Origin: Escherichia phage vB_EcoP_ZX5
Direction: 5' to 3' (one strand)
Sequence record: MW722083.1
Length of the DNA stretch: 39,565 nucleotides
Every line of letters begins with the position of its first letter. The stretch's first letter is position 1. The notes below the pieces were generated by a model. The model was not told the DNA's origin. It did no database searches and saw only the letters and a program-made list of their open reading frames with translations. The position numbers and the translations under genes were made by a program. This document shows, one piece after another, positions 2,542 through 39,467 of the stretch.

Positions 2542-5500
2542 ATGACGGTCTCAACCGAAGTTGACCACAACGAATACACCGGTAACGGCGTTACGACATC
2601 GTTTCCGTATACTTTTCGAATTTTCAGAAAATCAGACCTGGTTGTTCAGGTGTCTGACCTGAACGGGAACGTAACAGAATTGGTTCTGGATACCGGTTAT
2701 ACGGTAACTGGGGCGGGCACTTATAGTGGCGGTTCTGTGGTTCTTCCGTCTCCGCTTGCTACTGGATGGCGAATTACGATAGATCGTGTGCTTGATGTAG
2801 TGCAGGAGACAGACCTTCGCAATCAGGGAAAATTTTTCCCCGAAGTGCATGAAGATGCCTTTGACTACCTGACGATGCTGATCCAGCAATGTTTTGGGTG
2901 GTTCAGACGTGCATTGATGAAACCATCTTTGCTTGCAAAATATTACGATGCAAAGCAAAACAAAATTTCTAACCTTGCAGATCCATCATTTGAGCAGGAC
3001 GCTGTAAATAATCGCTCAATGCGTAATTATGTCGATGCTGCAATCGCCGGGGTTGTTGGTGGTTTTGGTTGGTTTATTCAGTATGGTTCTGGGGCTGTGT
3101 ACCGAACGTTCCAGGATAAAATGCGTGATGCTATTAGCCCCAAAGATTTTGGAGCTGTTGGTGATGGTATAAATGACGATTCCACTGCAATAAGCGCGTG
3201 CCTTGAAGCCTCATCTCCAGGTTATAAAATTGACGGATTAGGGCTTACTTTTAAAGTATCAACTCTTCCGGATGTCAGTCGATTTAAAAATGCTCGTTTT
3301 TTATTTGAGAGAATACCGGGCCAGCCTCTTTTTTATGCTTCTGAAGATTTTATCCAGGGAGAGTTATTTAAAATTACAGATACACCGTGGTACAACGCCT
3401 GGACGCAGGATAAAACGTTTGTATATGACAATGTCATCTATGCGCCTTTTATGGCTGGAGACCGCCATGGTGTAAATAACCTCCATGTTGCATGGGTTCG
3501 CTCAGGAGATGACGGGAAGACCTGGACAACGCCGGAATGGCTTACAGATTTACATGAAAACTATCCCACAGTTAACTATCACTGTATGAGTATGGGGGTT
3601 GTCAGAAATCGCCTTTTTGCTGTAATTGAGACGCGGACCGTGAGAGGAAATAAACTGCAGGTTGCAGAGTTGTGGGATCGCCCAATGAGTCGCAGCCTTC
3701 GCGTTTATGGTGGTATAACGAAAGCAGCAAATCAGCAAGTCGCTTATATTCGCATTACTGATCACGGATTATTTGCTGGTGATTTTGTCAACTTCTCAAA
3801 CTCTGGTGTTACAGGTGTTACCGGGAATATGACGGTGACTACTGTTATTGATAAAAATACTTTTACAGTTACGACGCAAAATACCCAGGATGTGGATCAG
3901 AATAACGAGGGTAGATACTGGAGTTTTGGTACATCATTTCACTCGTCACCATGGAGAAAAACCAGTCTTGGAACTATTCCTTCTTTTGTTGACGGAAGCA
4001 CTCCTGTTACTGAGATTCACAGTTTTGCGACGATTAGCGATAACAGTTTTGCTGTTGGCTACCATAATGGTGATATTGGTCCACGCGAGCTTGGGATACT
4101 CTATTTCTCTGATGCTTTCGGTTCTCCTGGTAGCTTTGTTCGCAGACGCATACCTGCAGAATATGAGGCGAATGCATCTGAGCCATGTGTAAAATATTAT
4201 GATGGCATTCTGTATCTGACGACCAGGGGGACATTAAGTACTCAACCCGGTAGTTCATTGCACAGAAGCTCTGATTTAGGTACATCATGGAATTCTCTTC
4301 GCTTCCCAAATAATGTTCATCACTCAAACCTTCCTTTTGCCAAAGTTGGCGATGAGCTGATTATTTTTGGCAGTGAGCGCGCATTTGGTGAGTGGGAAGG
4401 AGGAGAACCTGATAACCGTTATGCAGGAAATTATCCAAGAACATTTATGACCAGAGTTAACGTCAATGAGTGGAGTCTGGATAATGTAGAGTGGGTTAAT
4501 GTTACTGATCAGATTTATCAGGGCGGAATAGTTAACTCTGCGGTTGGTGTTGGTTCAGTTTGTATCAAAGACAACTGGCTGTACTACATTTTCGGTGGGG
4601 AAGACTTTCTAAACCCATGGAGCATAGGGGATAACAACAGAAAATATCCTTATGTTCACGATGGTCACCCGGCTGATTTGTATTGTTTCAGGGTGAAAAT
4701 TAAACAGGAAGAATTTGTTTCAAGGGATTTTGTCTACGGAGCCACTCCTAACAGAACGCTTCCTACTTTTATGTCGACGTCAGGCGTGAGGACGGTTCCT
4801 GTACCCGTTGATTTCACAGATGATGTTGCCGTCCAGTCACTGACTGTCCATGCAGGTACATCAGGACAAGTTCGCGCGGAAGTCAAACTTGAGGGTAATT
4901 ACGCCATTATTGCGAAGAAAGTACCGTCTGATGATGTTACCGCTCAGAGATTAATCGTTAGCGGCGGTGAAACAACGTCTTCAGCAGATGGTGCAATGAT
5001 AACGTTGCATGGTTCCGGAAGCAGTACTCCACGTCGCGCGGTATATAACGCACTCGAACATCTTTTTGAGAACGGAGATGTTAAACCTTATCTTGATAAT
5101 GTAAATGCTCTTGGTGGTCCGGGAAACAGGTTCTCGACAGTTTATCTTGGCTCCAATCCTGTGGTTACCAGTGACGGAACATTAAAGACAGAGCCGGTCT
5201 CTCCTGACGAAGCATTGCTGGATGCCTGGGGTGACGTCAGGTATATCGCTTATAAATGGCTGAACGCTGTCGCTATAAAGGGGGAAGAAGGGGCGAGGAT
5301 ACATCATGGTGTAATCGCGCAGCAACTTCGTGATGTTCTTATTTCTCACGGACTCATGGAAGAAGAAAGCACAACATGCCGCTATGCCTTTCTTTGCTAT
5401 GACGATTATCCCGCAGTATATGATGACGTCATTACTGGCCAAAGGGAAATGCCGCTGACTGATAATGACGGGAGCATCATTGTTGATGAGGATGATAATC

Positions 5501-5687: not shown

Positions 5688-5967
5688 ATCAAAAACGGAG
5701 TTGGTGAAAAGTTATCTTTGAATTCTATCATGAATCAGTACGTATTTTAAATACATGTTCAGGTTTATTACACCATAGCATTATTAAATACAAAATTAAG
5801 TCTATGGTTCCTGTACAACTGCCCCCACTCTGCTGGCTCGTTCTGTAAAATCATTAGTACTTTTATTGAGATATATGATATGGAACAATAATGATTCATA
5901 TATGGTTTACTATGCGGGTTTAGTCATCAATAATTGACTGGCTTATAGATAGTAAACAGGAGAAAGT

Positions 5968-6372
5968 ATGTCTGCTCAAGTAACAAGTGAGCAATTAAAT
6001 CAGTTGCTTAGTTTTGGTTCTCTTGCTGCGGTTATTGCAGGTGTCCCTCCGGAGGTTGCTTTAGGGGCTTTGGCTGGGGCGGTAATTTTTGTTACCTCTG
6101 CAGTAGAGTACCCCATCCGTCGCCGGGTGCTCCTGTCGATGCTCAGCTTTCTTTGCGGCCTTCTCTTTTACAAACCAGCAGCATCAATTCTTATCGGCAT
6201 AGCCAGCCTGATCCCTACCATCACGCAGGACTCTTTTGAAAAAGGGATTGTTTTCTCTGCAGGCGCATTCGTGTCAGCAATTGTCGCTGTGCGTATTGGT
6301 ATATGGCTCTATCACCGTTCCGATAATCCACGCGAGTTAATTCCGGGGAGAAAAGACGATGGTAACGCATGA
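5968..6372 (+). CDS. holin-like membrane protein (about 4 TM segments)
   Basis: 134-aa hydrophobic ORF with GGAGAAAG SD, immediately before the endolysin. Confidence 0.6.
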   Translation: MSAQVTSEQLNQLLSFGSLAAVIAGVPPEVALGALAGAVIFVTSAVEYPIRRRVLLSMLSFLCGLLFYKPAASILIGIASLIPTITQDSFEKGIVFSAGAFVSAIVAVRIGIWLYHRSDNPRELIPGRKDDGNA

Positions 6373-7286: not shown

Positions 7287-7765
7287 TCTGGGCATTCGTA
7301 AAAGCATACTGGAAACAGTTTCTTATCGTGGCAGTGCTTGCTGTTCTGGTCATATCAGGAGTGGTTGCCTGGAATATACACGGCAGTCGCCAGTACGATG
7401 CCGGGTATGCTCAGGCGGAAGAAGACCGCAAAGCCGAAGAAGACAAAGTTCGTCAGTACTACGAACAGGAGAAAGTGACCAATGAACGTGAAGCTCAGCA
7501 GAGGATCGACCAGGCGAGCAATGATGCTCTTGATGCTGCCGCTAGCGCTGGCCGGTTGCAGCAACAACTCTTTGCCATCCGTGAGCAGCTCAGGCAGTAT
7601 AACGCCATTGTCGGCGCTGGGTCGTCAGCCGCAGACACCGGAGTTTTGCTTGCCGACGTGCTCAGCAAATCTCTCGAGAGAAACAGACAACTGGCAGAGT
7701 ATGCTGACCGGGCAGCCGAAGCAGGAAGAGTCTGCGAAAAACAGTACGACACTTTGACCAGATAG
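7283..7765 (+). CDS. i-spanin (Rz-like), N-terminal TM plus coiled coil
   Basis: ATGA overlap with endolysin stop; N-terminal [20 protein letters not shown], charged periplasmic coiled coil. Confidence 0.75.
7521..7757 (+). CDS. o-spanin (Rz1-like lipoprotein) nested in the +1 frame of the i-spanin gene
   Basis: [13 protein letters not shown] lipobox, Pro-rich, wholly embedded in 7283..7765. Confidence 0.7.
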   Translation: MMLLMLPLALAGCSNNSLPSVSSSGSITPLSALGRQPQTPEFCLPTCSANLSRETDNWQSMLTGQPKQEESAKNSTTL

Positions 7766-7936
7766 CATGGCATTTTTCATGGTACTGATTTCCGGTGACG
7801 GTATATAAAACGGTACGGAAAAAATTGAGATTTGGAAAAATGTTATCACTCAATTGGTTATGGTTATCGTAAATAATTGAGTGGGAATGATTAACAGCTA
7901 ACTCATAGCAACTCATTCCTATTCAGATACTAATTT

Positions 7937-9531: not shown

Positions 9532-10178
9532 GCTGCACGCTCCCGCCCCTGGTTGTCTGTTGGTGACAGCGGAGCATTGCTGAATGCATTTGTTAATCTG
9601 GCAATATCCAACGCGTATCCAGGGTGTAGTTGCACTGCCGGGTCTTCGCACTGATTACCCCAAACATCGAAGCCATGAGACGACTGGCGGGCGAACAGTT
9701 CAATGCGAGAAACATCGCCTAACAATTGCACAAGTTTTTCACGAACGACATCTGGTTTTCTTGAATGCTCAAGCCGCGGTGCGGTAAATGACTGAACGAT
9801 CCCTGCATTAATGCGCGGAGGTAGTTTTCCCTTTACTGCAAACAGGCAATCTTCACTATTGGCGCGAGTCATGTGACCCATACCCATAACCAGTTTATCT
9901 GGTTGTCGACTACCACATTTTATCCACGTGAATCCCTTCATGGTCATCAGACGGAATCCCCAGGCTTCAACAACTTTTAGTGCTTCGAGTGGTTGTGTTG
10001 GCACCCACCACATGGCCAACAGACAGTTTTCATCGGCCAAATCCCACACAGGAAGTCGGCAGATATCCAGCACACTCATAACCGGATATTTAAAACCGGC
10101 ACCGCGATTACCATCTGCGGCTTTGTCCCGGTATACCCAGGGTGGATCTGCATAGATTAGTGTGTATTTCTTAGTCAT
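9528..10178 (-). CDS. N6-adenine DNA methyltransferase, MT-A70 family
   Basis: YADPPW motif near the N-terminus (LIYADPPWVY); ATG 10178 after GGGGTGG SD. Confidence 0.8.
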   Translation of the reverse strand: MTKKYTLIYADPPWVYRDKAADGNRGAGFKYPVMSVLDICRLPVWDLADENCLLAMWWVPTQPLEALKVVEAWGFRLMTMKGFTWIKCGSRQPDKLVMGMGHMTRANSEDCLFAVKGKLPPRINAGIVQSFTAPRLEHSRKPDVVREKLVQLLGDVSRIELFARQSSHGFDVWGNQCEDPAVQLHPGYALDIARLTNAFSNAPLSPTDNQGRERAA

Positions 10179-10470
10179 AAACCACCCCACAACATCCTAT
10201 GCCGCTATAGTCGCCACGGCGAAGGCCGTTACCTTTTGTGATACATTGGTCCCTGCGAACCGCAATCCTTGCTCGCTCAACATCACCAGAAGCAACATCC
10301 ATACACTGAAGCCAAAGGTGAGCGGCAATGCGGAACTGCCCTTTTTTTTCTCTTTCAATCGCGCGTTTTTCGATCTCTATCGCCGCAGGAGTAACGGCGA
10401 CAATCTTTGACGGACTACGCATTGAAACCTTATTCATGTGATATTTTTCAAGTCGGCTTAACTTTCTCAC
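10171..10470 (-). CDS. hypothetical protein
   Basis: 99-aa ORF between the AlpA-like gene and the MTase; start uncertain (internal Met at 10437). Confidence 0.4.
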   Translation of the reverse strand: MRKLSRLEKYHMNKVSMRSPSKIVAVTPAAIEIEKRAIEREKKGQFRIAAHLWLQCMDVASGDVERARIAVRRDQCITKGNGLRRGDYSGIGCCGVVYD

Positions 10471-10579: not shown

Positions 10580-10828
10580 TCATGCAGCGTTGCTCACGGG
10601 ACGATATACACGTTGCTGAACAGGAGGTTTTTTACCCTGGAACTCTGCCGGACTTGCTGCCTGACGTTCATCAAGCCAACGCTCAACTTCGTCACGGTTC
10701 CATGCGCAGCGTTTGTCAGTGATATACCAGCGTTTAGGAAATTCCCCTGCGCGCTCCATACGGTCGATAGTGCTCCATGACAGTGGCACCACCGCCAGGA
10801 GTTCCTTCTTACCTAATGCACCTTTCAT
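10580..10828 (-). CDS. AlpA-family HTH regulator / candidate excisionase
   Basis: 82 aa; LSWSTIDRMERAGEFPKRWYITDKRCAWNRDEVERWL matches the AlpA-type pattern; AGAGAGG SD. Confidence 0.7.
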   Translation of the reverse strand: MKGALGKKELLAVVPLSWSTIDRMERAGEFPKRWYITDKRCAWNRDEVERWLDERQAASPAEFQGKKPPVQQRVYRPVSNAA

Positions 10829-16123: not shown

Positions 16124-16170
16124 CAAAATATTATAAACTCTATTGATTTCATGTCTTATGTGGTTTTTAA

Positions 16171-16594: not shown

Positions 16595-17158
16595 ATGGAA
16601 AGTAATATCAAAGGGTTAGTTGCCGCCGGGCATGAGATGGCTTCGGAACTGAAAGCAGAATGTGGTGCCGTTGATATGCGCAGTGTGGCAAAGCTGATCA
16701 GCGATTTGGCAACGCAACTGGAAGTGCAACTGGTGCGTGCTAATGCGCTGGCGGCGGAGAATGCACTTGCTCGTAAAGCTGTTCAGGCATTCTGTGAGGT
16801 TGTTGGCGACAACACTGAGATTATCTCCGAGTTGGTTGGGCAAGATGGCGTTCTGGTTATTTTGAAGGCCATGAAGGCAACAGGAAATATGTCAGCCACC
16901 GACGCTTTCCTGGCTGAAATACGTGCGGAGGCACGCAACGAGGGGATTAACTACACCGCAAGCCGTCTTGCTGCTGCGTTCAATCACGGATTTATCAATA
17001 AGTCTTTGCGTGAAGTTTTCGACGTTACACGCATGATTTTGTCAGCGAAAGAAGAGTTGGCTAATGAACCGCATCCGATTGATGGCCTGTCCGGTGAATA
17101 TGCGGAGAAATCCCTTGAAGAATGGGCGGAACAGATTCGCAAAGGAGTTCAGTCATGA
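16595..17158 (+). CDS. hypothetical early protein
   Basis: 187-aa ORF with GAGGGTAAAG SD. Confidence 0.55.
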   Translation: MESNIKGLVAAGHEMASELKAECGAVDMRSVAKLISDLATQLEVQLVRANALAAENALARKAVQAFCEVVGDNTEIISELVGQDGVLVILKAMKATGNMSATDAFLAEIRAEARNEGINYTASRLAAAFNHGFINKSLREVFDVTRMILSAKEELANEPHPIDGLSGEYAEKSLEEWAEQIRKGVQS

Positions 17159-17388
17159 GCATCCGAACTGAACATGGATTTGGTCCTTCAACGGTCGAAG
17201 TCGAATGGCTTGATGATTGCCCTAGGTGCCAGCACGGCAAAGCCAGGGTAACAGGATGGTCGGTAACCAAAGATTCTTTGTGGGCGGGTGATGAGGCCGT
17301 TTGTTCCAAATGCGGTCACAAAGGTGAAATCGATGCTGATGGAGAGAATGCCTGGGTGGAATGGGACGAAATCGAGGAGGCACAATGA
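17155..17388 (+). CDS. small zinc-ribbon protein
   Basis: CPRCQHG...CSKCGH motif; ATGA overlap at both ends. Confidence 0.55.
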   Translation: MSIRTEHGFGPSTVEVEWLDDCPRCQHGKARVTGWSVTKDSLWAGDEAVCSKCGHKGEIDADGENAWVEWDEIEEAQ

Positions 17389-18047
17389 GCAACATCGACA
17401 TCGACATCGACATCGACATCGACACACTGGCACTGCGTGAGGCGGCACAGAACGCGAAAGATTTAGGTGGGATTAAGAATTACAAGCGAGGTGAGCAAGC
17501 TGTTGCCGAATTTGAGTCCTTGATAACGCCACACATTGTGCTGGCACTGCTGGATGAGAACGAAAGCATGTGCCGCGACCTCATTGCTCGCAATGGTGAG
17601 ATTGAAGGGCTTCGAAAACTGGTTGCTGAACTTGAGGAGACAAAATCACAACTCAACGAGCAGCGTGAGTATTACGAAGGCGTTATCTCTGATGGGAGCA
17701 AGCGTATTGCTGAACTGGAGAAAAGCGAAGAGCAACTCATTAACGAGCGTGACCATGCTGAGTCTGCTTTAGCTGATATGTATTTTGCAGCAACCGGGGA
17801 TAGGCCTGAGTGGAGTAACTGGTTCGGTTTTTCAGATGCAGTAGATGCCGTAGTTGACAGAATTGCTGATTTAGAAGCTAAACAGCCATCGCCAGTAGTA
17901 CCTGAAGGACTGATTAAAGCGGTGCGTTTTTATGAGCAGGTAAAACGTGAGAACCCGCCAGTCGAAACCGGAGCATGGAAAGACGCTGTTGACTGGGTGC
18001 TCAAAGAGGCTTGCCAGGCTGTAAACATTGGCATCAAAGGAGAGTGA
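17385..18047 (+). CDS. coiled-coil protein with N-terminal (Ile-Asp)5 repeat
   Basis: 220 aa from ATG 17385; MSNIDIDIDIDIDTL. Confidence 0.55.
   Translation: MSNIDIDIDIDIDTLALREAAQNAKDLGGIKNYKRGEQAVAEFESLITPHIVLALLDENESMCRDLIARNGEIEGLRKLVAELEETKSQLNEQREYYEGVISDGSKRIAELEKSEEQLINERDHAESALADMYFAATGDRPEWSNWFGFSDAVDAVVDRIADLEAKQPSPVVPEGLIKAVRFYEQVKRENPPVETGAWKDAVDWVLKEACQAVNIGIKGE
17394..17423. repeat. hexanucleotide tandem repeat (ATCGAC)x5 within coding sequence
   Basis: five perfect tandem units read directly. Confidence 0.9.
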
Positions 18048-18857: not shown

Positions 18858-19207
18858 TGGACTATTCACAGTTAAGTGATTTTGAAATTAACAGAATGGT
18901 AGGAGACATAATTTTTAAAGGCCTTTGGGCGTGTAAACCGGAAACATCAGGGAATAACACCAACAAATGGTATTACGGAAATACTGATACAACTTTTGAG
19001 CCATTAAACCCTTTACCTGACTACTGCAATAATCCATCGGATGCATGGCCTATTATTGTTGATAATAAAATCAGTCTAACCTGCCACCATTCTCGCGGTG
19101 AGTGGTCAGCTGTTTTTAATACCGAGAACATTTGCTTTCATGCGAATAATCCACTCAGAGCCGCCATGATTGTATTTCTCATGATGCAGGAAAATCAGAA
19201 TGGCTAA
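18854..19207 (+). CDS. hypothetical protein
   Basis: 117-aa ORF, ATGA overlap with upstream gene. Confidence 0.5.
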   Translation: MMDYSQLSDFEINRMVGDIIFKGLWACKPETSGNNTNKWYYGNTDTTFEPLNPLPDYCNNPSDAWPIIVDNKISLTCHHSRGEWSAVFNTENICFHANNPLRAAMIVFLMMQENQNG

Positions 19208-19538
19208 ATCAGCAGCAGAGCGCAAAGCCGCTCAGAGAGCCAGACAAGTTGCATCTGGTGTGCGTAAGCTGGAAATTGTGCTTGATGCTCAGGAAATTGA
19301 AATGCTTGAGCGTAACTGTGCCGCGCGTCGCCCCGGGCGTGCGCCTTACGAATTTGGTGAGTATATAGCGTTACTGATCCGCCAGGATGATGCACGCGTG
19401 CACGGGCGTATAAAATCGATCAGCAGAAAACGTTGCGGTAAGTGCGGCGAGAGAGTTCCAGTTAATTCATGTCCGTGTAATGGTGACTCACAATGCTGGG
19501 TGACTAAAGGCTGGCATGAAACGAAATTAATAGTGTGA
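19200..19538 (+). CDS. small zinc-finger protein, candidate late-gene regulator
   Basis: 112 aa; C-terminal CGKCGERVPVNSCPCNGDSQC; last gene before the terminator preceding terS. Confidence 0.5.
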   Translation: MAKSAAERKAAQRARQVASGVRKLEIVLDAQEIEMLERNCAARRPGRAPYEFGEYIALLIRQDDARVHGRIKSISRKRCGKCGERVPVNSCPCNGDSQCWVTKGWHETKLIV

Positions 19539-19546
19539 CATGTCAC
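19535..19546. repeat. 12-bp perfect palindrome GTGACATGTCAC (copy 1) overlapping the stop codon of 19200..19538
   Basis: exact match, one of three copies. Confidence 0.9.
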
Positions 19547-19587
19547 GAGTAGATTATGCATGATGAATTTGATGGGTTTTGAATACT

Positions 19588-19613
19588 GCCGCCAACTATG
19601 GCGGCTTTATTTT
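19588..19613 (+). terminator. intrinsic terminator between the early-right operon and terS
   Basis: 7-bp stem GCCGCCA/TGGCGGC, loop ACTA, then TTTATTTT. Confidence 0.7.
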
Positions 19614-19624
19614 GCATGGTACTA

Positions 19625-19639
19625 TTACCACAACGGTAA
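19625..19639. promoter_or_regulatory. palindromic operator-like site TTACCACAACGGTAA just upstream of terS
   Basis: perfect match inside a longer near-palindrome CATGGTACTATTACC...GGTAACTATTACCATG. Confidence 0.45.
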
Positions 19640-19647
19640 CTATTACC

Positions 19648-20253
19648 ATGGTGGTTATGATGCCTGCTGAACCTAAAACCTATAAACGCAAATCAACGCA
19701 ATTTAAGCCACTAACAGCAATGCAGGAGGCTTATTGCCAGTCATACATCAAAACGCCTGAAAACCAGACTCAGGCAGCGATTAACGCAGGATTCTCTCCA
19801 AATACAGCGGCAGTTAAAGCCAGTGTCATGATGCGCGATGAACGCATTCAAAAACGGATTGCCGAGTTGATGGAGGAGCGCAACAAACGAATGCGCGTCA
19901 GTGCCGATTACGTTCTCATGCGCCTGGTGGAGATCGACCAGATGGACGTGATTGATATCCTCAACGACGATGGGAGCCTTAAGCCAATCCGCGAGTGGCC
20001 GAAAATCTGGCGCACTACGCTTAGCGGCTTTGATCTGTCATCGACCATCATGAACATGAACGAGGATTCGATAGAGACAATCCTCAAAAAAATTAAATGG
20101 CCTGACAAGGTGAAGAACCTCGAACTGATTGGTAAGCACGTCGACGTCAACGCATTCAAAGAACGCCTGGATGTTAATGTGAATGTGACAATTGCTGATC
20201 GCATAGCGGCAGCCAGGAAGCGACTCAAAGAACGTCAGGATGGTAATCAGTGA
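19648..20253 (+). CDS. terS: terminase small subunit
   Basis: 201 aa from ATG 19648; the track start 19579 would span a terminator and operator; position immediately before the large subunit. Confidence 0.7.
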   Translation: MVVMMPAEPKTYKRKSTQFKPLTAMQEAYCQSYIKTPENQTQAAINAGFSPNTAAVKASVMMRDERIQKRIAELMEERNKRMRVSADYVLMRLVEIDQMDVIDILNDDGSLKPIREWPKIWRTTLSGFDLSSTIMNMNEDSIETILKKIKWPDKVKNLELIGKHVDVNAFKERLDVNVNVTIADRIAAARKRLKERQDGNQ

Positions 20254-21775: not shown

Positions 21776-21800
21776 AGCCAGCTCATCGGCTGGCTGTTTG
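21776..21800. terminator. hairpin between convergent terL and the minus-strand moron
   Basis: 7-bp stem AGCCAGC/GCTGGCT 21776-21782/21789-21795; U-tract better on minus strand. Confidence 0.45.
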
Positions 21801-21811
21801 TGACATGTCAC
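21800..21811. repeat. 12-bp perfect palindrome GTGACATGTCAC (copy 2)
   Basis: exact match 5 bp past the stop of 21816..22154 and abutting the hairpin. Confidence 0.9.
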
Positions 21812-21815
21812 GGTG

Positions 21816-22154
21816 TTATTGCTCGCTTAACTTCTGCTTCAGCAAGTAACCTTCAAGCATCCAGATTTTGTTTACAGCATTCTGCCGGGCAATCTTCCGA
21901 CCAATTTCCGCATCAAAGTTTTCTGGGCTTGCACAGGCGCTCTCTCCGGTGACGGTGAAGCCATTTTGTAGAGTTAATACACAAAATGTCAGCAGAGCCA
22001 AACTGTCGTGATAGTCATCGCCAGTTGCAATAGCTCCATCAGCAGCAGTGAAGTACGTTTCCGCAAGAATAATGCTTTCGATATGGTCTGGCGTAACGCG
22101 CGGGGCGGCTAAACCTTTAGCCTGAATTTCAGATTCAATGTCTTTGTCACTCAT
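21816..22154 (-). CDS. hypothetical protein (possibly N4 gp49 / Sf6 gene 66 family), minus-strand moron in the late region
   Basis: 112 aa with AAGGTGA SD; family guess from recollection only. Confidence 0.5.
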   Translation of the reverse strand: MSDKDIESEIQAKGLAAPRVTPDHIESIILAETYFTAADGAIATGDDYHDSLALLTFCVLTLQNGFTVTGESACASPENFDAEIGRKIARQNAVNKIWMLEGYLLKQKLSEQ

Positions 22155-22170
22155 AGTCTATTCTCACCTT

Positions 22171-22193
22171 AAAAAATGCCCGGCGAACCGGGC
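22171..22193 (-). terminator. terminator-like hairpin immediately upstream of the moron RBS
   Basis: 6-bp stem GCCCGG/CCGGGC 22178-22183/22188-22193, loop CGAA; A6 on plus gives U6 on minus. Confidence 0.45.
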
Positions 22194-22270
22194 GAACTGG
22201 AGGCAATGAGTTATGCCTCCCGTGGCTGTACTGGTTTACAGCATGAAGTCATCGCAATGGCGTCCTGCTG

Positions 22271-22313
22271 TAAAAATGGCGGTGATAGTCCTTCAAGGGA
22301 AACCATCACCGCC
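22271..22313 (-). terminator. tRNA-trailer terminator-like hairpin
   Basis: 8-bp stem GGCGGTGA/TCACCGCC 22278-22285/22306-22313 with 20-nt loop; A-run 22272-22276 on plus gives U-run on minus. Confidence 0.4.
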
Positions 22314-22356
22314 AAGCCCCTGGAACTTCTGGCATCACGGTCCTTAGGCGTGATTC

Positions 22357-22433
22357 TGGCGTGGCATGCAGGATTCGAACCTGCGACCAACCGCTTAGAA
22401 GGCGGTTGCTCTGTCCAGCTGAGCTAATGCCAC
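22357..22433 (-). tRNA. tRNA-Arg (anticodon UCU), CCA encoded
   Basis: 77 nt; acceptor GTGGCAT/ATGCCAC, D-arm GCTC...GAGC, anticodon arm ACCGC-CTTCTAA-GCGGT, T-arm GCAGG-TTCGAAT-CCTGC, discriminator G, CCA. Confidence 0.85.
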
Positions 22434-22755
22434 AACGCTGAGAGCACTTAGCCTGTTAAGGCGCCACACTTTGTCGCGGCTCCATAAATGCTCTCATCGT
22501 TGTACCCTCGTCTCTTCCGAGGCGTCACACCGAATCGCCGGGATGGTGAATCCCCGTGCGCGGAATAAAACCGCTCGACTTGCACATTCCGGCTACCTGG
22601 TTCGTTTGCCCGAGCAAGGGAGGGTGCCCCTTAAACGTATCCAGACCGCTATCGGCGCATGTGCCATACGCCGTACTGCTCAAAATAAAAGCTCACTCCA
22701 CCTGTTCAATTTAACGACAAGCCAGTCAGGTTAGTAACCGGAATGAACTCTTTGG

Positions 22756-22811: not shown

Positions 22812-22835
22812 CATATGTGGTTAAATTGGTAATAA
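22812..22835 (+). promoter_or_regulatory. conserved promoter-proximal element CATATGTGGTTAAATTGGTAATAA upstream of the head operon
   Basis: 19 of 24 identical to 2467..2490. Confidence 0.4.
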
Positions 22836-23081: not shown

Positions 23082-24761
23082 ATGGCGGAAACAACTAAAG
23101 AGCGATTGAACAAACAGTTCGCACAACTTGAAAGCGAGCGTCAGTCGTTCGAGCCGCACTGGCGCGAGTTGAGTGATTACATCAACCCGCGTGGTTCCCG
23201 CTTTCTGACTTCTGAGGTTAACCGTAACGATCGACGCAATACACGCATTATTGATTCGACCGGGACTATGGCGGCGCGCACTCTCGCCAGCGGCATGATG
23301 TCAGGCATCACAAGCCCCGCGCGTCCGTGGTTTCGCCTGGCTACGCCAGATCCTGAAATGATGGATTATGGCCCTGTTAAGTTGTGGCTTGAGGCGGTGC
23401 AGAACCGCATGAACGATATGTTCAATAAGTCGAATCTCTATCAGTCGCTGCCGCAGTTATACGGAAGCCTCGGCACATACAGCACTGGTGCAATGGCAGT
23501 GCTGGAGGATGACGAGGACATCATTCGCACAATGCCATTCCCGATAGGCAGTTACTACCTGGCTAACTCACCTCGTGGCAGTGTGGACACCTGTTTTCGC
23601 AAGTTCTCTATGACTGTTCGTCAGCTTGTTCAGGAGTTCGGGCTAAATAACGTCAGCGAATCCGTAAAAAGCATGTGGGAAAGCGGAACCTACGAGAAGT
23701 GGATTGAAGTGATGCATTCGGTTTACCCGAACATTGACCGCGATACATCGAAGCTGGATAGCAAGAACAAGCCATTCAAATCGGTTTATTACGAGGTTGG
23801 TGGCGATAACGACAAGTTGTTGCGTGAGTCCGGATTCGATGAGTTTCCAATTATGGCTCCGCGCTGGGAAGTTAACGGCGAAGATGTTTATGGATCATCA
23901 TGCCCGGGTATGCTGGCGCTTGGACCTGTTAAGGCATTGCAGCTTCTCCAGAAGCGCAAGTCGCAGTTGATTGATAAAGCCACCAATCCGCCGATGGTTG
24001 CTCCGACTTCCCTCAAGAATCAGCGTGCCTCCCTTCTTCCTGGCGACATCACGTATATCGATCAGATTACTGGTCAGGATGGTTTCAGGCCTGCTTATCT
24101 GGTTAACCCCAGTACAGCAGATTTGGTGGCAGACATTCAGGACACCCGTCAAATCATTAACAGCGCCTACTTTGTCGATCTGTTCATGATGTTGCAGAAC
24201 ATCAATACCCGCTCGATGCCTGTTGAAGCGGTGATCGAAATGAAAGAAGAAAAACTTCTGATGTTGGGGCCGGTTCTGGAGCGTCTGAACGACGAATGTC
24301 TTAATCCTCTCATTGACCGCGCTTTCTCGATGATGGTGCGTAAAAACATGCTGCCGCCACCGCCTGACGCGATGGAAGGTATGCCCCTGAAGGTCGAATA
24401 CATTTCCGTCATGGCTCAGGCGCAGAAGTCTATCGGCCTGTCCAGTCTGGCGTCTACGGTCAACTTCATTGGTCAACTTGCGCAAGCGAAACCAGAAGCT
24501 CTCGACAAACTCAACGTTGATCAGGCGATCGATGCATTCGCTGATATGTCCGGAGTGTCTCCAACCGTCATTGTTCCGCAGGAACAGGTTGAGCAGGCTC
24601 GCCAGCAACGGGCACAGCAACAACAGCAGCAACAAATGATGGCGATGGGGATGGCGGCGGCACAGGGTGCCAAGACGCTAAGCGAAGCTAAAACTTCGGA
24701 TCCGAGTGTTTTGTCAGCTATGGCGAATGCAGTTAGTGGTCAGGGTGGGCAATCACAATGA
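23082..24761 (+). CDS. portal (head-to-tail connector), T7 gp8-like
   Basis: 559 aa; Gln/Ala/Met-rich C-terminus as in T7 gp8 as recalled. Confidence 0.85.
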   Translation: MAETTKERLNKQFAQLESERQSFEPHWRELSDYINPRGSRFLTSEVNRNDRRNTRIIDSTGTMAARTLASGMMSGITSPARPWFRLATPDPEMMDYGPVKLWLEAVQNRMNDMFNKSNLYQSLPQLYGSLGTYSTGAMAVLEDDEDIIRTMPFPIGSYYLANSPRGSVDTCFRKFSMTVRQLVQEFGLNNVSESVKSMWESGTYEKWIEVMHSVYPNIDRDTSKLDSKNKPFKSVYYEVGGDNDKLLRESGFDEFPIMAPRWEVNGEDVYGSSCPGMLALGPVKALQLLQKRKSQLIDKATNPPMVAPTSLKNQRASLLPGDITYIDQITGQDGFRPAYLVNPSTADLVADIQDTRQIINSAYFVDLFMMLQNINTRSMPVEAVIEMKEEKLLMLGPVLERLNDECLNPLIDRAFSMMVRKNMLPPPPDAMEGMPLKVEYISVMAQAQKSIGLSSLASTVNFIGQLAQAKPEALDKLNVDQAIDAFADMSGVSPTVIVPQEQVEQARQQRAQQQQQQQMMAMGMAAAQGAKTLSEAKTSDPSVLSAMANAVSGQGGQSQ

Positions 24762-25054
24762 CAGATTACGAAGACGATCAACTGAAAGAAGAAAACGCCC
24801 GTAAGCAACGTGACATGGCACAGCGTGAAATTGATGACATTTGCTTTGTCATGAGCAGTGAACAGGGGCGTCGCGTTGTCTGGTCGGTGCTGGAGAAAGG
24901 CCGTGTGTTTTCCGCTATCTCACCGATGGACGCTATGGCAATGGCATTTAATGAGGGGCAACGCAATCTGGCGCTGGAACTGTTTCAGCGCGTTATGGCG
25001 CATTGCCCTGAACAGTATTTGAAGATGGCCAAAGAGGCCAGTGAACAGGAGTGA
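24758..25054 (+). CDS. hypothetical protein between portal and scaffold
   Basis: 98-aa ORF with ATGA overlap to the portal stop. Confidence 0.5.
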   Translation: MTDYEDDQLKEENARKQRDMAQREIDDICFVMSSEQGRRVVWSVLEKGRVFSAISPMDAMAMAFNEGQRNLALELFQRVMAHCPEQYLKMAKEASEQE

Positions 25055-39052: not shown

Positions 39053-39433
39053 ATGAGAAAAGTATTTTTGATTTTTGGATTTATGCTTCTCGTTGGATGC
39101 CAGTCAGCTGCACAGTTTGAAAGAAATATGCTTACGTGGCGCGGGCAGAGTATAGACGCAATGGTTCAGCAGTGGGGGTATCCTCAGGGAGAGCTTACAT
39201 CTCCAGATGGAAACAGAGTGTATGTTTACTCAAGCTCTGGTAGTTATAACGTACCACAAACCACAACGTATAATACTACGTCTAATCTAATTGGTAATAC
39301 TATATATTCAAACACATACGCAACAACTGATGGCGGTTATACACTCCATTTCAGTTGCTCTGTTTACGTTGAGTTTGGTGCTGATAAGATTATTAAAAAT
39401 GTTACATGGCGCGGTAATAATTGCGTTGCGTGA
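39053..39433 (+). CDS. lipoprotein, candidate superinfection-exclusion or surface-modifying moron
   Basis: MRKVFLIFGFMLLVGC signal peptide with lipobox; AT-rich relative to neighbours; followed by a terminator. Confidence 0.65.
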   Translation: MRKVFLIFGFMLLVGCQSAAQFERNMLTWRGQSIDAMVQQWGYPQGELTSPDGNRVYVYSSSGSYNVPQTTTYNTTSNLIGNTIYSNTYATTDGGYTLHFSCSVYVEFGADKIIKNVTWRGNNCVA

Positions 39434-39441
39434 CATGTCAC
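39430..39441. repeat. 12-bp perfect palindrome GTGACATGTCAC (copy 3) overlapping the lipoprotein stop codon
   Basis: exact match; abuts the terminator hairpin. Confidence 0.9.
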
Positions 39442-39467
39442 AGGCCGCTTTCGCGGCCTTGTTTTTA
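39442..39467 (+). terminator. intrinsic terminator after the lipoprotein gene
   Basis: 7-bp stem AGGCCGC/GCGGCCT with loop TTTC, then TGTTTTTA. Confidence 0.7.

Follow-up and report, generated by a model that had tools for sequence, protein, structure and literature searches.

GTGAC-N2-GTCAC, a short perfect palindrome, accompanies a family of small phage proteins in the canonical-type loci compared here, and this association is new. The member studied, which we call X, is encoded in a 39,565-nucleotide stretch of DNA from Escherichia phage vB_EcoP_ZX5 (MW722083.1) that was analyzed whole and is referred to below as the window. From the recurrence of the palindrome at the stop codon of its gene, we infer that X and this site are functionally linked. 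The palindrome is most likely X's own binding site, and its placement most likely marks transcription unit ends, not late promoters. Our preferred but tentative reading, held at somewhat under an even chance, is that X binds GTGAC-N2-GTCAC and regulates site-specifically as a boundary or roadblock factor, limiting its own expression as well.

Gene X (19200–19538, plus strand) begins with ATG, overlaps the stop of a NinX-like gene upstream, and encodes 112 residues with a basic N-terminal helix, a predicted ribbon-helix-helix (RHH) domain, and a C-terminal four-cysteine motif. The sequence-only reading of this DNA had described a 112-residue protein with a C-terminal cysteine cluster, and the ORF bears this out, with cysteines at residues 79, 82, 91, 93, and 99. 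Its start coordinate of 19200 holds, and the end it gave, 19546, is that of the palindrome, the ORF ending at 19538. In an alignment of 55 relatives, C79, C82, and C99 were invariant and all 55 members had at least one cysteine between C82 and C99, giving the pattern C-x2-C-x7-10-C-x7-9-C. X is a conserved four-cysteine protein, and zinc binding is predicted. In the epsilon15-like genomes whose gene order was read, the early-right operon ends with X. As that reading had it, X is followed by a terminator, an operator-like site, and terS, all found in that order, and its stop codon is embedded in a palindrome: the TGA at 19536–19538 falls within GTGACATGTCAC at 19535–19546 (site 1), the presumed X operator.

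X is predicted to adopt the RHH fold, a beta-strand and then two helices, by which RHH proteins pair into intertwined dimers. The AlphaFold2 model of the monomer (pLDDT 89) has an extended segment at about residues 22–28 and helices at residues 30–42 and 52–74. Within the N-terminal helix, R8 and R13 are invariant, and K9, Q12, and R15 are conserved. The conservation of these helix residues mirrors that of the invariant half-site, and the beta-strand residues are variable, as is the central dinucleotide of the palindrome. Covariation of protein and site was considered and rejected, since the central dinucleotide varies within a single phage without tracking the beta-strand residues. Like Arc, Mnt, CopG, AmrZ, ParD, and TacA, X is small, and its presumed target is likewise a short perfect palindrome, sometimes paired about three helical turns apart. 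It differs from these RHH regulators in adding the highly conserved basic N-terminal helix and the C-terminal C4 zinc motif, in belonging to no Pfam RHH family, and in having its putative operator at its own gene's 3′ end and at unit tails instead of at a promoter.

Searches with X and 54 relatives gave no significant match to any Pfam family, including Q, Ogr_Delta, and MatP. Weak matches to RHH_5, RHH_1, and RepB-RCR_reg (E 0.013–0.07) occurred in one or two of the 55 members, that to RepB-RCR_reg in two. A PDB sequence search with the single X protein returned no match, and a profile search of PDB sequences placed proteins of the TraR/YbiI type at the top with borderline values (E 0.019–0.03). 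The hhalign probability for X against TraR/DksA was 50%, fold searches with X retrieved neither TraR nor Q, and PADLOC gave no defense-system match. TraR/DksA proteins (TraR, YbiI) resemble X in a long helix, CxxCGxx(I/L)P, G...C, and a short helix; their cysteine spacing is C-x2-C-x17-C-x2-C, unlike that of X, whose long helix would double as RHH helix B. In the LexA-regulated YbfE and the CopB/RepB regulators of IncFII plasmids, which have no zinc motif, a basic "ERK..QR.R" stretch likewise leads into an RHH-like segment; the matches to these proteins were not significant (NCBIfam E 0.068). P2 Ogr/Delta proteins (PF04606), whose late promoters carry a dyad, TGT-N12-ACA, upstream near −55, are also small four-cysteine phage proteins; they differ in cysteine spacing, and X has a predicted RHH domain and no Ogr_Delta match. 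The likeness to Q or Ogr proposed from sequence alone is thus not upheld, there being no Pfam match to either and the predicted fold being RHH. The homology and structure predictions it called for did point to a DNA-binding protein, though one unrelated to Q or Ogr. Homologues numbered 762 cluster representatives in the family search and fell into about 150 clusters at 50% identity; they have no Pfam family and are mostly labeled "hypothetical protein". The family appears to be widespread in phages and uncharacterized; we found no study of it in the literature, and the available portion of the vB_EcoP_ZX5 paper does not discuss gene X.

Three exact copies of the 12-mer lie in the window (at 19535, 21800, and 39430), far above chance, with 0.00 across 100 shuffles. 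Epsilon15 and SPN1S carry exact copies at three corresponding positions. In all three phages, these copies lie at transcription unit tails, and the order is always gene stop, palindrome, hairpin. Site 2 (21800–21811), about 75 nt past terL, adjoins a hairpin at 21776–21795 and lies 4 nt past the stop of a convergent minus-strand gene (21816–22154); it was present in 47 of the 62 epsilon15-like loci with enough downstream DNA. Site 3 (39430–39441) takes in the TGA of a lipoprotein-like gene that ends at 39433 and closes the structural operon, and a terminator (39442–39466) follows directly. Its epsilon15 equivalent (19517) holds the stop of a different gene, gp18. A decayed fourth site, ATAGCATGGCAT (7762–7773), lies at the Rz stop, the end of the lysis unit; its equivalents are GTGACATGTCAT in SPN1S, with the Rz TGA inside, and GTGACATGGCAT in epsilon15. 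The stops of unrelated last genes, namely gp18, the lipoprotein-like gene, and Rz, fall inside the palindrome, and the flanks of sites 1–3 have only the 14-mer TGTGACATGTCACG in common. To our knowledge, operators that embed a stop codon at the 3′ end of a gene are rare. A one-mismatch copy, GTGACATGGCAC (24810–24821), lies inside ORF 24758–25054.

X-family loci were collected by searches with the sub-alignments A2 and A3. The palindrome overlapped or abutted the stop of the X-family gene in epsilon15-like phages, N15, a P2-like Yersinia phage, and ZF40, and it lay −36 to +9 nt from that stop in 10 independent protein clusters of 35–100% identity. Position −1, which places the TGA inside, was found in epsilon15-like phages, N15, the Yersinia phage, L088/L090, and L104, and the arrangement of site 1 recurs in epsilon15, SPN1S, ST512-KPC3phi13.3, N15, the Yersinia phage, L088, and L104. 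Homologues with a C-terminal extension retain the palindrome, translated as V-T-G-H. In each of the 19 loci that encode canonical members, GTGAC-N2-GTCAC ranked first among palindromes, with 37 copies in all against about 0.3 by chance, our own estimate from base frequencies. N15 has three exact copies and L104 has five. Two phages have copies paired at a distance of about 33 bp, and two further phages have one exact and one degenerate copy at similar spacing, which fits cooperative operator binding.

Thirteen divergent X-family clusters lack GTGAC-N2-GTCAC, an observation that weighs against a general pairing of X with the palindrome. GCGTTA-N4-TAACGC, the sole palindrome common to this divergent subfamily (L105–L134), was considered as its site and judged unrelated; it lies 1.6–3.6 kb upstream of X and, by eye, seemingly in a coding region. 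Some palindrome copies lie inside ORFs, which counts against reading the sites as unit tails. In 19 diverse loci, terminator-like motifs within 60 nt accompanied 9 of 39 palindrome sites and 136 of 522 ordinary ORF ends. Because no excess was observed, the combination of tail and terminator is specific to the epsilon15-like lineage. In Vibrio-type phages, the palindrome lies 10–20 nt ahead of the terS ATG with no terminator behind it, and in N15 a site (28550) falls past the end of the repA operon, before the terminator that comes ahead of the antirepressor genes.

At the early/late junction of the window, site 1 is followed by a variable slot (19547–19587, plus strand), the remnant of the 3′ end of a 70-residue gene present in sister phages. 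L010-type loci have a 70-residue ORF ending in DEFDGL*, of which the window retains only ...gatgaatttgatgggttttga. ST512-KPC3phi13.3 has a small gene in this slot, with an SOS-box-like CTGT-N8-ACAG, read by eye, ahead of it. Insertions and deletions of small genes concentrate in the DNA just past site 1. A terminator-like hairpin, GCCGCCAACTATGGCGGC, follows on the plus strand at 19588–19605, with a T run to about 19613, and the epsilon15 record annotates a terminator at the equivalent place, the end of the early-right operon. The operator-like site of the sequence-only reading corresponds to tandem prophage-repressor operators (19624–19658), with ATTACC-N5-GGTAAT at 19624–19640 and 19642–19658. 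This motif has 15 matches in the window against 1.1 expected, and the epsilon15 record annotates the equivalent position as a repressor binding site. Next comes terS (19660–20253, plus strand; Terminase_2 E 1e-29, PHROG 51), the small terminase subunit gene and first late gene, whose equivalent is named terS in the TL-2011b annotation. No sigma-70-like promoter was predicted between the terminator and terS, so terS may depend on read-through. An analogy with lambda PR′-tR′, in which GTGACA-18-CATGAT (19535–19564, overlapping the palindrome) would precede the terminator, was rejected because 19547–19587 is a deletion remnant of the 70-residue gene and the −10 element is absent from sister phages and epsilon15. 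This nonconserved element was the only candidate found near site 1 for a Q-type site (constitutive late promoter, pause, and terminator).

The portal, tailspike, and lysis units have a common motif at their heads, CATATGTGGTT, and lack the palindrome there. Repressor operators lie ahead of terS, the portal cluster, and the tailspike gene, and no consensus sigma-70 promoters were predicted at the late-unit heads. A scan of all early-region ORFs of at least 70 residues and several others found no Q, N, Ogr, RinA-type, or other late-activator family. Epsilon15-like phages are without a recognized late-gene switch.

The gene, site, terminator, and operators were read from the sequence and the fold is a tool prediction; co-occurrence of gene and site points to binding of the palindrome by X. 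The site positions, together with the habits of RHH proteins, suggest that its effect there is negative, of the roadblock type. As proposed, an X dimer would bind the palindromes after the early-right operon is transcribed. X bound at site 1 would halt RNA polymerase ahead of the X stop codon, and X expression would be limited because the stop codon would not be transcribed. Transcription running out of one unit into its neighbor, as at the early-to-terS junction, would also be gated by X. The palindrome over X's own stop characterizes the family, and the further copies in epsilon15-like phages mark the tails of rightward units: early-right, terS-terL, structural, and, in relatives, lysis. The nearest parallel in logic is LacI, whose O3 operator overlaps the 3′ end of its own gene. 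LacI is reported to autoregulate through a roadblock at O3 (PMC3711431), and polymerases blocked ahead of a stop codon are reported to lead to trans-translation (PMC13584721), so a regulator bound in this way can stop RNA polymerase before the stop codon. LacI belongs to another protein family, and a roadblock by X is suggested by site location.

Several observations sit uneasily with this proposal. SPN1S retains all three exact sites despite an X that has lost the conserved N-terminal helix, which speaks against a link between X and the site. With a good intrinsic terminator following so closely, a roadblock seems unnecessary, and a possible dependence of terS on read-through would favor a positive role for X. 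A bolder version, which we consider unlikely, is that X and the palindromes form an undescribed boundary-element system, a terminator/antiterminator switchable site by site that would order the early-to-late program without Q or N. It would consist of a zinc-RHH protein on matS-like sites embedding the stop codons of last genes, and in one conceivable route a TraR-like zinc module would be passed to the polymerase as the ribosome releases.

To a late activator acting by antitermination at 19588–19613, a reading near to the sequence-only idea, we assign a modest share of belief, well short of the roadblock. X would be loaded onto RNA polymerase from the palindrome and allow transcripts from the early-right promoter to read through the terminator into terS-terL, and likewise at other unit tails. 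As with lambda Q and N15 Q, the gene is distal in the early-right operon and a DNA site lies shortly upstream of the pre-late terminator. The epsilon15-like genomes whose order was read have X right before the terminator and terS, the palindrome always comes ahead of the hairpin when followed along the nearest gene, and N15 site 28550 has a comparable position. The missing promoter ahead of terS, the lack of a Q, N, Ogr, or RinA-type gene among the window ORFs scanned, and the weak resemblance of the C-terminal half of X to the RNA polymerase binders TraR/YbiI also fit. However, X has no Phage_antiter_Q (PF06323) match and no conserved late promoter at its site, and it has extra sites at operon tails. 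Its distal position and predicted DNA-binding fold suit a late activator, but homologues are found alongside a true Q in N15 (gene 40, E 1e-110 on the Q profile), alongside a true Ogr in the P2-like Yersinia phage vB_YenM_201.16 (gp51, Ogr_Delta E 3.9e-21), and adjoining xis/int in a lambdoid prophage. Symmetry of the site is a further difficulty, as are the convergent junctions (sites 2 and 3), where read-through would give only antisense RNA. The Vibrio-type site has no terminator to overcome, and sister phages have the ribosome-binding site of another gene directly past the palindrome. Fold searches matched neither TraR nor Q, and RHH proteins are mostly repressors, both points against antitermination.

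A site beside a gene plus dispersed copies is typical of centromere-binding and organizer proteins, and X shows this pattern. X might accordingly be an architectural protein or packaging accessory that bridges, loops, or anchors phage DNA in the manner of MatP, an RHH protein acting on dispersed palindromes in the E. coli Ter macrodomain; gene-end placement would then merely reflect scarce intergenic space. We regard this as doubtful. The half-sites are identical to those of matS, GTGAC-RNY-GTCAC (PMC3603311), site 3 falls about halfway round the circular map from sites 1 and 2, some copies fall within ORFs, and the Vibrio-type copy lies between a G/C-rich region, suspected to be near cos, and terS. 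Homology to MatP was rejected, there being no Pfam match, no detectable sequence similarity, and an hhalign probability of 0.4%; X has a zinc motif in place of the four-helix bundle and coiled coil. Its sites, at gene ends in a phage genome, have a spacer of 2 bp where matS has 3, the window contains no 13-bp matS even with one mismatch allowed, no partner ATPase is present, and the strong preference of the sites for stop codons and the 3′ ends of genes suggests a connection to transcription or translation. That the palindrome is instead the target of another host or phage factor, or a junction for module exchange, with X an unrelated accessory regulator nearby, would agree with its retention in SPN1S beside a truncated X, the insertion/deletion hot spot right after site 1, and flanks with only the 14-mer in common. 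This too seems unlikely to us: the site tracks X across unrelated phages with differing terminases, lifestyles, and hosts from Escherichia to Vibrio, is missing from loci of the divergent subfamily, and has X as the sole gene common to its neighborhoods. Moreover, the exact 12 bp are kept where the X protein is only 77–82% identical, which argues for a protein-binding site. Least probable by far is a classical promoter-bound activator of the Ogr/RinA/Mor type recruiting RNA polymerase to late promoters. The gene is immediately upstream of terS, as is reported for RinA-type activators (PMC3152322), X has a zinc-cysteine motif, and the late-unit heads have no consensus sigma-70 promoters. Yet the palindromes lie at unit 3′ ends and the late heads carry CATATGTGGTT instead, so a role in promoter activation finds no footing there. 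By our reading of the sequence, roughly 100 bp separate the center of site 1 from any possible terS start downstream, the terminator falls in between, and the Yersinia phage has both an X homologue and a true Ogr while X itself does not match Ogr_Delta.

Prophages of the epsilon15-like type are common in E. coli, Salmonella, Klebsiella, and Enterobacter, and a candidate protein–site pair at the early/late junction and at rightward unit tails offers a test of how units separate or join. The predicted fold, zinc motif, and probable 12-bp target are useful annotation for phages from N15-like to P2-like to Vibrio types. If the sites are roadblocks, the LacI-O3 principle would extend to phage genome organization, and the half-sites held in common with matS suggest that X and MatP may read DNA similarly. 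Proteomics has detected "gp46", at most a candidate X homologue, in lysogens of an N15-like phage (PMC12042878).

The small protein with a C-terminal cysteine cluster that the sequence-only reading placed at the end of the early-right operon corresponds to an ORF of 112 aa at 19200-19538 (+), here called X, with cysteines at positions 79, 82, 91, 93, and 99. Its ATG overlaps the stop codon of the NinX-like gene upstream, and its TGA (19536-19538) is embedded, as claimed, in the palindrome GTGACATGTCAC (19535-19546). The terminator and the operator-like site described downstream were also found, as a terminator-like hairpin and T run at 19588-19613 and as two tandem matches to ATTACC-N5-GGTAAT at 19624 and 19642, ahead of the terS start at 19660. 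Equivalent sites are annotated as prophage-repressor binding sites in the epsilon15 GenBank record. The 39,565 bp genome is that of a complete temperate podophage of the epsilon15 type (genus Uetakevirus), and the DNA around X shares 94-99% identity with Escherichia phages HEMP4, TL-2011b, phiV10, and their relatives. The attP core attgagtgggaatgatt, 190 bp ahead of the integrase start, and the single tRNA agree with the published description of vB_EcoP_ZX5, which in the sections consulted contains no discussion of gene X (PMC9782041).

Profile scans assigned X to no Pfam or NCBIfam family; its sole NCBIfam match, the LexA-regulated protein YbfE, was sub-threshold. X belongs to PHROG 536, labeled "transcriptional regulator". 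The family is common in Enterobacteriaceae prophages, with a search returning 762 homologous cluster representatives, the best 120 of which are at least 76% identical to X. With more distant homologues taken in, it amounts to about 150 clusters (50% identity), and its members include N15 gene 46, ZF40 gp22, a gene of P2-like Yersinia phages, and genes of Vibrio and Aeromonas phages. In an alignment of 55 diverse members, R8, R13, C79, C82, and C99 are invariant and E54, L59, P87, and G95 nearly so. All 55 carry at least one further cysteine between C82 and C99, giving the motif C-x2-C-x7-10-C-x7-9-C, whose four cysteines are consistent with zinc binding. AlphaFold2 with the family alignment yielded a confident model (pLDDT 89) in which a basic helix (5-19) leads through an extended segment to helices 30-42 and 52-74; a cysteine knuckle follows, and then a short helix (100-107). 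This architecture points to a ribbon-helix-helix fold. A sequence search of solved structures gave no match. Profile searching of PDB sequences ranked YbiI and TraR highest at E values of only 0.02-0.03, hhalign gave TraR a probability of 50%, and fold searches recovered neither protein; the likeness to TraR is a lead only. The X of SPN1S (locus L136, 38348-38656) begins with MATTTTRRQN in place of the conserved N-terminal basic helix, in a genome that still has three exact palindromes.

The window holds three exact copies of GTGACATGTCAC (19535, 21800, and 39430) compared with 0.00 in shuffled sequence. In epsilon15 and SPN1S, too, exact copies occupy these three relative positions, with X proteins only 77-82% identical to that of the window. 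In both, a fourth, slightly degenerate copy lies at the Rz stop codon; this copy is decayed in the window. Relative to the nearest gene, the order in epsilon15-like phages is constantly stop codon, palindrome, hairpin, and the embedded stop codons come from unrelated genes, namely X, gp18 or a lipoprotein-like gene, and Rz. The palindromes therefore mark the tails of rightward units.

Outside the epsilon15-like lineage, the X gene is tailed by the same half-sites. The X homologue of N15 (gene 46) ends in GTGACTGGTCAC, that of the Yersinia phage in GTGACGCGTCAC, and those of two metagenomic lineages in GTGACAGGTCAC and GTGACTGGTCAC, with the TGA inside the site in every case. In ZF40 and others the palindrome follows the stop codon by 5-9 nt, and in C-terminally extended homologues it is retained and translated as V-T-G-H. 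At the loci that encode canonical family members, no other palindrome is nearly as widespread as GTGAC-N2-GTCAC, which occurs in 19 of 19 with 37 copies in 333 kb, where we estimate about 0.3 from base frequencies. N15 has three exact copies and one metagenomic phage five; pairs about 33 bp apart occur at two compared loci (L089 and L101), and an exact and a degenerate copy lie at similar spacing in the Yersinia phage and, by our reading, in K308. Outside the epsilon15-like lineage the palindromes are not enriched near terminators, and the 13 clusters of a divergent subfamily have none.

From this co-occurrence of gene and site, we infer that X binds GTGAC-N2-GTCAC. The half-site is invariant, as is the basic N-terminal helix, while the center varies, as do the beta-strand residues. 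As a counterpoint, SPN1S has retained its sites although its X is without the N-terminal helix. The X-palindrome pair appears to be uncharacterized. MatP, itself a ribbon-helix-helix protein, targets matS (GTGAC-RNY-GTCAC), which has identical half-sites and a spacer one base longer; the 13-bp matS version is absent from the window, and X has no sequence homology to MatP. A role for X as an organizer or packaging accessory is a minor rival.

We propose that X is a site-specific, zinc-motif ribbon-helix-helix DNA binder with GTGAC-N2-GTCAC as its operator. The hallmark site lies across the 3' end of X's own gene, so that bound X should halt RNA polymerase before it has transcribed the stop codon. 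The same logic is documented for LacI at O3, and blocked complexes of this kind are known to be resolved by trans-translation, according to the abstracts of two reports (PMC3711431 and PMC13584721). X would thereby feed back negatively on itself and control what leaves the early-right operon; at unit tails, two of them convergent junctions, the remaining copies would serve as boundary elements. One weakness is that a good terminator seems to leave little for a roadblock in front of it to do.

The sequence-only reading had proposed a late-gene activator comparable to Q or Ogr. What holds of this is that X is a putatively DNA-binding zinc-cysteine regulator, located at the early/late junction, and that the palindrome is important; kinship to Q or Ogr does not, since X matched neither family in profile scans, nor does a place at late promoters, since the sites mark unit tails. 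N15 encodes a true Q (E 1e-110) and has a late promoter and terminator annotated at another place in its genome, and the P2-like Yersinia phage encodes a true Ogr (E 4e-21) in canonical position; each also encodes an X homologue with the palindrome. A lambdoid prophage carries an X of 85-88% identity just 5' of lambda-type xis and int. Palindromes are absent from the heads of late units. In Vibrio-type phages a copy does lie 10-20 nt 5' of the terS start codon, which we judge to be a repressor or roadblock position rather than an activator position. The late-activator idea could also take the form of an antiterminator. In favor of this, X stands directly before the terminator and terS, a position kept in the epsilon15-like genomes whose gene order was read, and no other late regulator was found among the window ORFs scanned. 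Nor did the scan yield a consensus promoter in the interval from the terminator to terS, so terS may depend on read-through. Even so, we consider an antiterminator improbable and favor the boundary role.

The heads of units carry other elements. ATTACC-N5-GGTAAT has 15 matches in the window (at most two mismatches; 1.1 expected), starting at 977, 2042, 2422, 8025, 13047, 13109, 13821, 14206, 16108, 16170, 19624, 19642, and 22755, with weaker matches at 6311 and 32023. They include places before several transcription units, among them int, cro, terS, the portal cluster, and the tailspike gene, which suggests that the prophage repressor directly controls many units; terS, the portal cluster, and the tailspike gene have such operators at their unit heads. 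The portal, tailspike, and lysis heads share CATATGTGGTT, about 50-75 nt 5' of each first gene and followed 5-6 nt on by GGTAATA. It occurs five times (0.73 expected), with window copies at 2467-2477, 5897-5907, 16155-16165, and 22812-22822, and is conserved in epsilon15 (locus L007; 2988, 24751, and 35953) and SPN1S (L136; 3259 and 24855). Because no consensus sigma-70 promoter was predicted before the portal cluster or the tailspike gene, CATATGTGGTT may be part of an unrecognized late promoter.

The slot between palindrome and terminator is a hot spot where small genes are gained and lost. In the window, 19547-19587 is what is left, at the 3' end, of a 70-aa gene (MPKIRYDLEDM...DEFDGL), which many sister phages still carry intact; a promoter-like match overlapping the palindrome at 19535-19546 was rejected, as it sits in this remnant. 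A Klebsiella phage (ST512-KPC3phi13.3) has a small gene there behind an SOS-box-like sequence. Such CTGT-N8-ACAG sequences, shortly 3' of the palindrome and in front of a small gene (L138, this Klebsiella phage, 2291-2330; L003, the Yersinia phage, 5460-5480), may be part of a LexA-controlled gene that directly follows the X site. Vibrio-type phages with an HNH gene beside terS have a conserved block just 5' of terS (L004 8100-8250, L100 7350-7495, and L102 12840-12975), ordered as a G-run and C-run, AAATAAGATCTTTTTTT, and GTGACACGTCAC, which may be a cos region with an adjoining X site.

Elsewhere in the window, a minus-strand accessory block (21816-22740) between terL and the portal cluster contains an N4 gp49/Sf6 gp66-family gene, tRNA-Arg(TCT) at 22357-22433, a long hairpin (22277-22314), and about 300 nt without assigned function. 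In the early-left operon, 10171-10470 (-) and 10580-10828 (-) encode a homologue of the PerC family of transcriptional activators (PF06069, E 6e-7) and an AlpA-like excisionase/regulator. The early-right operon has a second small cysteine-rich ORF (17122-17388 (+), 88 aa, CPRC...CSKC, PHROG 4446), with weak zinc-ribbon matches and no Ogr_Delta match. In the Ead/Ea22-like gene, a perfect tandem hexamer repeat, (ACATCG) x 5.5 at 17392-17424, encodes an alternating Ile/Asp run and could vary in copy number.
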